A stretch of 57,257 nucleotides of DNA from a virus (taxonomy: Duplodnaviria; Heunggongvirae; Uroviricota; Caudoviricetes): the IMG/VR virus record IMGVR_UViG_637000263_000002; one strand, given 5' to 3'. Positions 18,001 through 21,000 of the stretch are shown here, piece by piece (within the stretch, counting starts at the first letter, position 1; the number at the start of each line of letters is the position of its first letter). Made by a program: the position numbers.

Positions 18001-21000
18001 CTGCGTGATGAGCGTCAGGGCAAAACACCAAAAGCCTCCCCCATTACCCCGGAACAAATTGAAATCCGTGAGCTCAGGAAAAAGCTACAACGCATTGAAA
18101 TGGAGAATGAAATATTAAAAAAGGCTACCGCGCTCTTGATGTCAGACTCCCTGAACAGTTCTCGATAATCGGGAAACTCAGAGCGCATTATCCTGTGGTC
18201 ACACTCTGCCATGTGTTCGGGGTTCATCGCAGCAGCTACAGATACTGGAAAAACCGTCCTGAAAAACCAGACGGCAGACGGGCTGTATTACGCAGTCAGG
18301 TACTTGAGCTACATGGCATCAGCCACGGTTCGGCCGGAGCAAGAAGCATCGCCACAATGGCAACCCGGAGAGGCTACCAGATGGGACGCTGGCTTGCTGG
18401 CAGGCTCATGAAAGAGCTGGGGCTGGTCAGCTGTCAGCAGCCGACTCACCGGTATAAACGTGGTGGTCATGAACATGTTGCTATCCCTAACTACCTTGAA
18501 AGGCAGTTCTCCGTGACCGAACCAAATCAGGTGTGGTCGGTATGTGACCTATATCTGGACGGGTAAGCGCTGGGCGTACCTCCCGTTGTTCTCGACCTGT
18601 TCGCAAGAAAACCAGTGGGCTGGGCCATGTCGTTCTCGCCGGACAGCAGGCTCACCATGAAAGCGCTGGAAATGGCATGGGAAACCCGTGGTAAGCCCGG
18701 CGGGGTGATGTTCCACAGCGATCAGGGCAGTCATTATACGAGCAGGCAGTTCCGGCAGTTATTGTGGCGATACCAGATCAGACAGAGTATGAGCCGGCGC
18801 GGAAACTGCTGGGATAACAGCCCAATGGAACGCTTCTTCAGGAGTCTGAAGAACGAATGGATGCCGGTGGTGGGTTACGTAAGCTTCAGCGAGGCAGCTC
18901 ACGCCATAACGGACTATATCGTTGGATATTACAGTGCACTAAGACCGCACGAATATAACGGTGGGTTACCCCCAAACGAATCGGAAAATCGATACTGGAA
19001 AAACTCTAACTCGGTGGCCAGTTTTTGTTGACCACTTCAGTGGCGGTAAGACGGGGAATATGTTTAACCTGATGTTGACCTCTAAAAAGCTGACAAAAAC
19101 GGCAATTAACGAGGCGCTCCGGAGGATGAAAAAAGCAGGTCTGAACAAGTCTGAACTTGAGGCTTTTTTGCGGGATATGATTAACGGTAAGCAAAAGAGC
19201 TGGCTGGCGCATTGTACTGATGCAGAGGCGTTATGTATTGATCGGGTCATAAGTGAGGTGCTGGCAGAGCATCCAGGATTGATTAGCGTCCTTCGGCAAC
19301 GGTATGAGGGGCGGGGGATGACCAAATGCAAAATGGCTGAACTGCTGAATGATGCACACCCGAAATGGAGTTTAAGAACCTGTGAAAGACGCATTGAGCA
19401 TTGGCTAAAGGTGGCAGAATTTATTTTGTACAAACCAATGGTTATGGCTTTTGGTATAGAGAAAAAAGTTATTGCTTTTTGACGTAAAAACTGCTTCAAT
19501 TCTTGTACGCTTCGCAAAGCTGTACCGCGAGGCGAATAGCAGACATGGACATTTGAAAGAGCCCGCTTTATGCGGTTTTTTTTATACCTGAAAAACGGCA
19601 CAGGACGTTAAACGTGCTGGTGATCAGATGAGTTTGCAGATGTGATGACATATGGTTATTATTCTGCCTCCGGCCCTTTAGCTCAGTTGGTCAGAGCGAG
19701 CGACTCATAATCGCCAGGTCGCTGGTTCAAGTCCAGCAAGGGCCACCAACCACCACTAGCTCATCCGGATAGAGCATCAACCTTCTAAGTTGACGGTGCG
19801 AGGTTCGAGTCCTCGGTGGTGGGCCAGCGCCGACTTAGCTCAGCAGGCAGAGCAACTGACTTGTAATCAGTAGGTCACCAGTTCGATTCCGGTAGTCGCA
19901 CCATATGCGGGCATCGTATAATGGCTATTACCTCAGCCTTCCAAGCTGATGATGCGGGTTCGATTCCCGCTGCCCGCTCCAGCGAGATTTGAGACGAAGG
20001 TTGTTATTTGCACTGACACAATATTGTGTGGGAATGTCTGACTCCTTACCATCTCCTGTTCTGTGATGTTGTTTTGTTGCAGTTCCAGTGCTCTTTTTTC
20101 AGCACCAGAATGGTGCATTGTCGGTCAGGTTACGTAGTGAACCTCTGGCAGGGGACTGATAATGCATCATTCTGGTGTTGTAAATATCTCTTCGGACAAC
20201 TTACAAAATATTCTAAGCAAACCCCGGGAACACACTCTTAACTGCCTTGGTTGGCGGTTTTTTGTACAGTGCTCGGTATGTGTGAGCTGGAAATCAGATT
20301 TTGCATGGACTGGAATCATGCTGTTATTTAGGGGCGAAGAACTGGCTTTTTCTTCCGCCTTCTCACCAGTAACGATTAGAAAAATAATGAAATGCCCCTC
20401 CGGGGAGGAGGACCGTAGAAAAAAGGACCCGCCAGCAAAAACATTGGGGATGAACAGCTTTCGCTACTCAGATTGCTGGCGGGTAAAGTTCCTCATGAAT
20501 TAAGAATGCTACGCGATCTTTTTTAATGGAAATGAAAATTATTGTCAATTAGTCGTGCGTGTTTTTTCATACAATATTGGTAAAGGTGATTCAGGCCATC
20601 AGAGTTTTGCTGATGGCCTTTTTTCTTTCCGATAGCACAGGTCTGTCGGGGGGGCGGGATATGTATCAGATGGAAAAAATATCAACAGGCATTGCCTACG
20701 GCACCTCCGCCGGCAGTGCCGGCTACTGGTTTTTGCAGTGGTTGGATCAGTGAGGTGTACTGGCAATAGCGGACACTACCATTTGTTCTTTTTTTAAGCA
20801 GCCATCTGATGATATTTTTCCCTGAAGGCTGCCGGGGAGATATTCCCCAGACGAGAGTGACGACGCTGACGATTGTAGAAAATCTCAATGTATTCCCGTA
20901 TTACTGAGATGGCTTCATCCCGGTTATTAAAACGATAGTGGCTCAGGCTCTCATTTTTCAGCGTTCCCCAGAAGCTTTCCATCGGAGCGTTGTCGTAACA

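Follow-up and report, generated by a model that had tools for sequence, protein, structure and literature searches.

We describe two islands of four transfer RNA (tRNA) genes each in a 57,257-nt DNA record of a Caudoviricetes virus (IMGVR_UViG_637000263_000002; this whole stretch of DNA is referred to here as the window). Our overall reading, to which we assign a probability of about 0.8, is that both islands are copies of one mosaic module residing in two lambdoid prophage remnants riddled with insertion sequence (IS) elements, and that the tRNA-Thr gene of the first copy has become a tolerated pseudo-tRNA by neutral decay. The window derives from a chromosome of the Shigella flexneri 2a 2457T type: its positions 17199-29058 are identical at 11,860 of 11,860 bases to positions 706835-718694 of AE014073.1, the genome of S. 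flexneri 2a strain 2457T. Each remnant holds the same four-tRNA module, with the Q-position gene on one side and the lysis cassette on the other. The module of prophage 1 is stranded between two IS elements and no longer serves any phage; its tRNA-Thr lost one of the two bases G70 and G71 after the IS insertions, in part of the S. flexneri lineage. This loss is probably tolerated because copy 2, located 9 kb away, and the chromosomal thrU gene are both intact, and because prophage 1 can no longer make particles. That the IS insertions preceded the deletion is consistent with neutral decay.

The two tRNA islands and their single difference

ARAGORN identified eight tRNA genes, all on the + strand, forming island 1 at 19672-19981 (310 nt) and island 2 at 28682-28992 (311 nt). 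In each island the anticodon order is CAT, TCT, TGT and TCC, that is, Ile2(CAU)-Arg(UCU)-Thr(UGU)-Gly(UCC); this order, reported in a preliminary description made from the sequence, is confirmed by ARAGORN. Island 1 consists of tRNA-Ile2(CAU) (19672-19748; Rfam RF00005 score of 70.5 bits), tRNA-Arg(UCU) (19750-19826; 56.4 bits), the mutant tRNA-Thr(UGU) (19829-19902 or 19829-19903; 55.9 bits) and tRNA-Gly(UCC) (19907-19981; 64.9 bits), and island 2 of tRNA-Ile2 (28682-28758; 70.5 bits), tRNA-Arg (28760-28836; 56.4 bits), an intact tRNA-Thr (28839-28914; 69.8 bits) and tRNA-Gly (28918-28992; 64.9 bits). The Rfam gathering score of 29 bits for tRNAs is exceeded by 8/8 genes. Spacers between the four genes of an island are just 1-4 nt long and CCA is encoded in every gene. 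A CAT tRNA identical to that of the window is labelled tRNA-Ile by PGAP in Escherichia coli relatives, i.e., it is of the lysidine-dependent Ile2 type.

Pairwise alignment places both islands within a common module of about 406 nt (19578-19983 versus 28588-28993) showing 98.5% identity, with 5 mismatches and 1 gap, which is far above chance. All five substitutions are confined to the first 50 nt of the module, and 19626-19983 is 100% identical between copies except for the one gap. On both sides, the sequences flanking the module are unrelated between the two copies. These differing flanks, and the fact that relatives harbour the islands in two prophages located at separate sites, indicate that one mosaic module is present in two prophages, so that the word 'duplicated', under which the islands were first described, is misleading. 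A recent segmental duplication within this chromosome would account for the near-identity of the 406-nt copies, and nearby IS copies could mediate rearrangements, yet we consider it very improbable: homology begins within the U-tract of a terminator-like hairpin 5' of the islands and stops no more than 2 nt past tRNA-Gly, the neighbouring genes differ (a DUF1133-family gene versus a PF06530 Q gene), and in E. coli relatives the two islands, each flanked by its own sequences, belong to separate prophages that lie far apart. In-situ duplication was rejected as a candidate on the grounds of the unrelated flanks and of this arrangement in the E. coli relatives.

Inside the tRNA genes, the two islands differ at only one place. 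Copy 1 reads GTAGTCGCACCA, with one G at 19898, and copy 2 reads GTAGTCGGCACCA, with GG at 28908-28909; GG is also found at this site in host thrU and in all E. coli relatives. The pairwise alignment, the gap in the Infernal alignment and the ARAGORN drawing place the deletion (19898, + strand) at tRNA positions 70/71, in the 3' strand of the acceptor stem. The preliminary description held that the islands were identical except for two bases lost from copy 1 tRNA-Thr, one in the anticodon loop and one in the acceptor 3' strand. The acceptor loss is real and identity elsewhere in the tRNA genes is 100%, but the anticodon-loop deletion, which was looked for by pairwise alignment, is absent: the anticodon stem-loop ACTGA CTTGTAA TCAGT is the same in both tRNA-Thr copies. 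The apparent second deletion (309 versus 311 nt) arose because the start of copy 1 had been taken as 19673 instead of 19672. The record is hereby corrected to one deletion, not two.

The analysis supports the assignment of both islands to the Q-to-lysis position of two different lambdoid prophages. Island 1 sits on a 1.7-kb scrap (19043-20750) with one copy of each of two IS3-family elements on either side. In the Q position of prophage 1, 5' of the island, lies a 5'-truncated DUF1133-family gene (19060-19482, + strand), which matches positions 35-176 of 176 of Pfam PF06576. This gene is cut by an IS at 19042/19043 and has lost its first ~112 nt by comparison with the intact prophage of E. coli FDAARGOS_944. 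The remnant is called as a protein of 140 aa in 2457T; a 184-aa full-length homologue is found 5' of the same island in E. coli, and the full-length homologue (L141; L numbers designate individual loci) has a weak PF06530 match. On the other side of island 1, a class II holin gene remnant (20661-20750) is cut after ~90 nt at 20750/20751 by another IS (20751-21987). A Phage_holin_2_1 remnant of 30 aa is called in 2457T, and collinearity with FDAARGOS_944, which has the intact version of the arrangement of DUF1133 gene, island and holin gene, stops at position 20750 of the window. The earlier claim that copy 1 lies in a decayed prophage is borne out by these truncations at 19042/19043 and 20750/20751. 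Relative to FDAARGOS_944, the head genes of prophage 1 are in addition inverted, at 7043-15561, and broken by a further insertion of 1,331 bp. Because its DUF1133 and holin genes are IS-truncated and its head genes inverted and interrupted, prophage 1 is dead.

Island 2 follows a full-length antiterminator Q gene (28102-28482, + strand; PF06530 positions 1-118 of 118, E = 5.8e-54), whose product has 126 aa in S. flexneri assemblies and is annotated as 'antiterminator Q family protein' in E. coli. The preliminary description spoke of two different Q alleles upstream of the islands; this is accurate for copy 2, which follows a genuine PF06530 Q, but the gene preceding copy 1 is the truncated DUF1133 gene in Q position. 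The stretch of prophage 2 from Q through the island to the holin is 99.9% identical in eight E. coli genomes.

Consequences, distribution and age of the tRNA-Thr deletion

The acceptor stem of copy 2 tRNA-Thr consists of seven Watson-Crick pairs (GCCGACU with AGUCGGC), after which come A73 and CCA. The acceptor of copy 1 would adopt one of two forms: a 6-bp stem with a bulged C and with CCA in register, as in the Infernal model, or 5 bp and two terminal mismatches (G.A at 1-72 and C.C at 2-71) with CCA out of register, as in the ARAGORN model. A 7-bp Watson-Crick acceptor stem with an in-register CCA is thus missing from copy 1. The Rfam score is 13.9 bits lower for copy 1 than for copy 2, still above the gathering score. 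The predicted cloverleaf energy, computed with the non-canonical A52.C62 pair open, goes from -21.5 kcal/mol in copy 2 to -14.4 kcal/mol in copy 1, corresponding to a destabilisation of ~7 kcal/mol. Furthermore, the minimum free energy structure of the mutant is devoid of an acceptor stem and the acceptor pair probabilities, which are 1.0 in copy 2, range from 0.2 to 0.56 in copy 1. The identity elements for bacterial threonyl-tRNA synthetase (ThrRS) are the anticodon and the pairs G1-C72, C2-G71, G4-C69 and G5-C68 (PMC9976931, Table 1). Because a single G remains opposite C2 and C3, the G1-C72 and C2-G71 pairs cannot both form in copy 1 in the normal register, and at least one ThrRS identity pair would be lost in either model. 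The 7-nt UGU anticodon loop and the D and T arms are kept and are identical to those of copy 2. RNase P and EF-Tu read the 12-bp stack of acceptor and T arm, and a bulged or short stem should impair both maturation and ternary complex formation. Based on these models, copy 1 tRNA-Thr is probably a pseudo-tRNA, poorly processed and poorly charged. The earlier statement that the change should abolish function is therefore retained as far as the structural lesion is concerned, while loss of function would follow from structure and identity rules.

We searched IMG/VR and the GTDB species-set genomes for the deletion allele with an exact 41-mer over the deletion and for the intact allele with a 42-mer; further S. 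flexneri chromosomes were retrieved by two exact-protein look-ups. The deletion 41-mer is present in S. flexneri SFBU1023 and 'E. coli' ECMA0423 among the GTDB species-set genomes and in 2 IMG/VR contigs, and the intact 42-mer in >120 IMG/VR contigs among the matches listed. The deletion allele is found in the same IS-flanked context in nine assemblies (CP182556.1, CP178302.1, CP182555.1, CP102218.1, CP102209.1, CP102221.1, AE014073.1, CP102200.1 and CP102224.1) and the intact allele, again in this context, in two S. flexneri assemblies (CP045941.1 and CP094987.1). Copy 2 is intact (GG) in every examined locus extending that far. Among 5,426 complete E. coli genomes, the deletion allele is found in FDAARGOS_943 only, and the E. 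coli strains with island 1 in its native flanks (FDAARGOS_944, FDAARGOS_943, RMDEC465, VL40, VL7S7 and contig PSSP01000001.1) all have a 76-nt intact tRNA-Thr there. Since both of these S. flexneri assemblies, like every E. coli relative, have the intact allele, the deletion is derived. By these comparisons it is a real mutation that arose later than the IS insertions on either side and is polymorphic among S. flexneri strains, and as such a genuine lineage marker.

A change of 1 nt in length within a short G run could in principle be a sequencing or assembly error, which the preliminary description had named as a possible refutation. This is barely credible, because the identical allele in the same IS-flanked context is shared by the nine assemblies, including the Sanger-era 2457T genome (AE014073.1), and copy 2 is always GG in those same assemblies.

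FDAARGOS_943 and two IMG/VR contigs have Ile2-Lys-Thr-Gly islands in which the same one-G loss lies on another tRNA-Thr haplotype (G9/U16/U20); the deletion loci on this haplotype are L002 7259-7299, L003 708-748 and L127 8972-9046 (FDAARGOS_943). Each of the two haplotypes is also found intact. The second-haplotype deletion would represent either an independent event or short-patch conversion between prophages.

Several observations weigh against the reading of copy 1 as a neutrally decayed pseudo-tRNA in a module that would have supplied tRNAs for rare codons. ARAGORN, Rfam and PGAP all still accept the mutant tRNA-Thr, and the PGAP annotation of this allele in FDAARGOS_943 is a plain tRNA-Thr, not marked as a pseudogene. 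The preliminary description had proposed that a normal call by a tRNA predictor would refute decay, and, formally, these calls do so; we read the continued calls as a limit of the predictors and not as refuting decay, and as a reminder that tRNA predictors and PGAP label such damaged genes as normal tRNAs. In addition, one would not quite expect a purely neutral and random lesion to recur on a second haplotype, as this deletion does. Finally, the codon-supplementation role is weakly supported, with a host comparison set of only two genes, and two of the four island tRNAs merely duplicate host genes (see below).

The predictor calls would be expected if the mutant tRNA-Thr were still functional, its 6-bp stem with a bulged C, G1-C pair, A discriminator and in-register CCA being tolerated by RNase P, ThrRS and EF-Tu. 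Infernal aligns the gene from end to end at 55.9 bits, and the allele persists in many S. flexneri strains as well as on the second haplotype. Nevertheless, we regard retained function as decidedly unlikely, given that the predicted cloverleaf is ~7 kcal/mol weaker with its acceptor stem gone from the minimum free energy structure, that either C2-G71 or G1-C72 has to be given up in the normal geometry (PMC9976931), and that a neutral lesion would also be expected to persist where the gene is redundant and the prophage dead.

Origin and possible role of the islands

The module would be made of two halves, a phage-type Ile2(CAU)-Arg(UCU) half and a host-derived Thr(UGU)-Gly(UCC) half from which tyrU and spacers have been removed. 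The Ile2-Arg half shows 88.4% identity over 172 nt to the annotated ileZ/argN genes of phages Nil2, 2851 and Stx2a_F349. In the other half, tRNA-Gly(UCC) is identical to chromosomal glyT at 75/75 positions and tRNA-Thr(UGU) to host thrU at 74/76 (comparison with L126 572-647), the sole differences being U16C and U20C in the D loop (19843-19848 and 28853-28858); host thrU shares the A52.C62 mismatch in the T stem of tRNA-Thr. Within the thrU-tyrU-glyT-thrT-tufB operon of the host, thrU and glyT are separated by tyrU and spacers, of which the island keeps only TAT. These 3 nt correspond to the T after thrU plus the AT before glyT, a suggestive match, though of just 3 nt. Among the sampled prophage islands (~130), tRNA-Thr is identical to thrU at 76/76 positions in 80, and tRNA-Gly is identical to glyT in 109. 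We infer either that the host operon is the source from which the Thr-Gly half was captured, or that the two are kept homogenised.

A survey of the retrieved islands found 52 with Ile2-Lys(UUU)-Thr-Gly, 38 with Ile2-Arg(UCU)-Thr-Gly, 15 with Thr-Gly alone and several degenerate forms. Related Ile2-(Lys)-Thr-Gly and Thr-Gly islands, at 93-98% identity, are carried by phages vB_EcoS-689R5, vB_EcoM-606R7, PhiR47_1 and phi467. The second tRNA of these islands has one backbone and a varying anticodon, namely Arg(UCU), Lys(UUU; position 33 is C), TTA (which would read UAA) or TAA, and its anticodon loop is shortened in five copies; the anticodon variants are located in IMG/VR contigs (L005, L030, L037, L043, L045, L057, L071, L084 and L096). 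A glyT-like gene with anticodon TAC and a 1-nt loss in the acceptor 3' strand was seen in L096 and in E. coli genomes, where it is annotated 'tRNA-Val'. Taken together, anticodon switching and decay are frequent in these islands.

Late transcription of the module in a live phage would start at the Q-antiterminated late promoter and read through into the module, and/or start at a promoter of its own. A terminator-like hairpin with a U8 tract (19555-19585, + strand; folding z = -3.9) lies in the gap between the DUF1133 gene and island 1, and an analogous hairpin (28569-28594, + strand; z = -4.2) precedes island 2; for either hairpin, 0/200 shuffles fold as well. We propose that these hairpins act as tR'. 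A candidate sigma-70-like promoter (19633-19662, + strand; TTTGCA-18-TATTAT or TTGCAG-17-TATTAT) is located ~10 nt 5' of tRNA-Ile2 and has an identical copy at 28643-28672 (100% conserved between modules), the number of hits in the consensus scan being no higher than in shuffled sequence.

Once transcribed, the module would, on the standard view of such islands, raise the supply of four minor tRNAs for the A-ending codons AUA, AGA, ACA and GGA, on which phage genes draw more heavily. In phage SfI, ACA usage is 17.3% versus 7.1% in the host, and its tRNA has been proposed to serve ACA-rich phage genes (PMC3636060). The prophage open reading frames (ORFs) of the window contain, per 1000 codons, 5-13 ATA, 3-8 AGA, 10-12 ACA and 11-17 GGA. 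The averages in E. coli K-12 are about 4, 2, 7 and 8 per 1000, respectively, and the enrichment relative to these figures is modest. The host comparison set available in the window, 2 ORFs of which one is possibly not core, is too small to inform. The earlier suggestion that the cluster supplies rare-codon tRNAs is accordingly plausible and draws a little support from this modest enrichment, against which stands the fact that two of the four tRNAs are essentially host copies.

An alternative is that the islands are mainly anti-defence cargo, replacing tRNAs cut by immune nucleases such as AriB of the PARIS system, with the U16C/U20C tRNA-Thr being a cleavage-resistant thrU. A U16-to-C change in tRNA-Lys impairs AriB cleavage and T5 tRNAs carry C16 (PMC12409363); likewise, U16C and U20C are all that distinguishes the window tRNA-Thr from thrU. 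The Lys(UUU) tRNA of related islands has a non-host backbone without the UAAU motif, phages SfI, Sf6 and P21 have Asn(GUU) and Thr(UGU), and lambdoid cargo 3' of Q includes differing combinations of Lys(UUU), Thr(UGU) and Asn(GUU). The window tRNA-Thr further resembles the PARIS-neutralising tRNA variants of T5 (PMC11464382, PMC12409363) in being a viral tRNA-Thr(UGU) with C16 for host U16; the T5 variants, in contrast, also alter bases of the AriB cleavage site and the window tRNA-Thr retains U39 C40 A41 unchanged. Moreover, the effect of U16C was demonstrated specifically for tRNA-Lys, the tRNA-Thr of 80 of the ~130 sampled islands is identical to host thrU and should be cleavable, and AriB has not been reported to target Ile2, Arg(UCU) or Gly(UCC). 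On balance, a mainly anti-defensive role is unlikely, and the anti-PARIS resemblance of tRNA-Thr is a lead. Somewhat less likely still is the broader proposition that tRNA cargo downstream of Q is shaped by tRNA-targeting immunity and not by codon usage, such that tRNA-Thr would be AriB-resistant and the recurrent loss of G70/71 could be a selected silencing of a costly or targeted extra tRNA-Thr in lysogens. In the collection of papers searched, none ties lambdoid islands to AriB or describes thrU-glyT capture, and nothing relevant turned up on ileZ/argN/argO or on Ile/Arg/Thr/Gly tRNA genes next to antiterminator Q.

By their position, homology and presence in viable phages, the islands belong to the known lambdoid late-region tRNA islands; they are no new kind of element, and the genome has been public since 2003. 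tRNA islands 3' of Q are a textbook feature of lambdoid and Shiga toxin (Stx)-converting phages, and the decaying, IS-laden state of Shigella prophages is well known. One of the closest known counterparts, ileZ-argN-argO of the Stx-converting phages 933W, Nil2, 2851 and Stx2a_F349, occupies the same site, from the Q side to the stx/lysis side, and has the same first two genes and the same tight head-to-tail packing; in the window, however, argO is replaced by the host-origin Thr(UGU)-Gly(UCC) pair, an stx operon is absent and copy 1 lies between IS elements. tRNA genes including Thr(UGU) are also located 3' of Q in SfI, Sf6, ST64T, PS3 and P21 (PMC3636060). The Asn(GUU)/Thr(UGU) islands of these Shigella and E. 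coli lambdoid phages share Thr(UGU) 3' of Q with the islands described here, which differ in having four genes and other partner tRNAs. The host operon has the same Thr-then-Gly order and near-identical genes; unlike it, the island is without tyrU, the 116-nt spacer, thrT and tufB, and has a phage-type promoter and flanks. There is little new biology in these islands, although the tyrU-less thrU-glyT copy and the U16C change could feed work on why temperate phages carry tRNAs.

Insertion sequences and neighbouring genes

Repeat searches and NCBIfam transpos_IS3 matches located three copies of a first IS3-family element at 15562-16810, 17794-19042 (inverted, - strand) and 24022-25273. A second IS3-family element (ORFs of 100 aa and 272 aa; repeat search) is present at 5779-7042, 20751-21987 (inverted, - strand) and 31131-32394. 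3' of island 2, domain profile searches identified a lysozyme gene (30199-30732, + strand) and an Rz gene (30714-31133, + strand), the latter adjoining the IS at 31131; in E. coli relatives a holin is annotated between the island and lysozyme/Rz. The lysis genes of prophage 2 are followed by a lambda-like head and tail block extending to ~54 kb.

A number of other features were observed along the window. The inverted IS3-family copies at 15562-19042 bracket a 983-bp segment (16811-17793) with a DedA/VTT-family gene (17145-17657, - strand). S. flexneri SFBU1023 (L124) and ECMA0423 (L125) have this segment the other way round, which constitutes an IS-mediated inversion polymorphism. The 1,331-bp insertion in prophage 1 (12787-14117) interrupts the terminase gene by comparison with the intact prophage of FDAARGOS_944, and rve-domain transposase ORFs attributed to it lie at 12274-12813 and 12798-13703 on the - strand. 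Remnants of a Mu-like element span 3255-5781, with an ORF for a Mu DNA-binding domain (3255-3764, - strand) and a Mu transposase (4147-5781, + strand); the end of the transposase ORF at 5781 meets the IS3-family copy starting at 5779, and pagP and dcuC are found to the left. Between the two prophage remnants, and separating them, a Toprim_2 primase/helicase-like ORF of 619 aa (22199-24058, + strand) stands by itself, with an IS element on each side. Prophage 2 has at its far end an IpaH-type type III effector gene (54681-56198, - strand) with LRR_TTSS and NEL E3-ligase domains, which has a PBP-family (ybhB-like) gene as neighbour (56781-57257).

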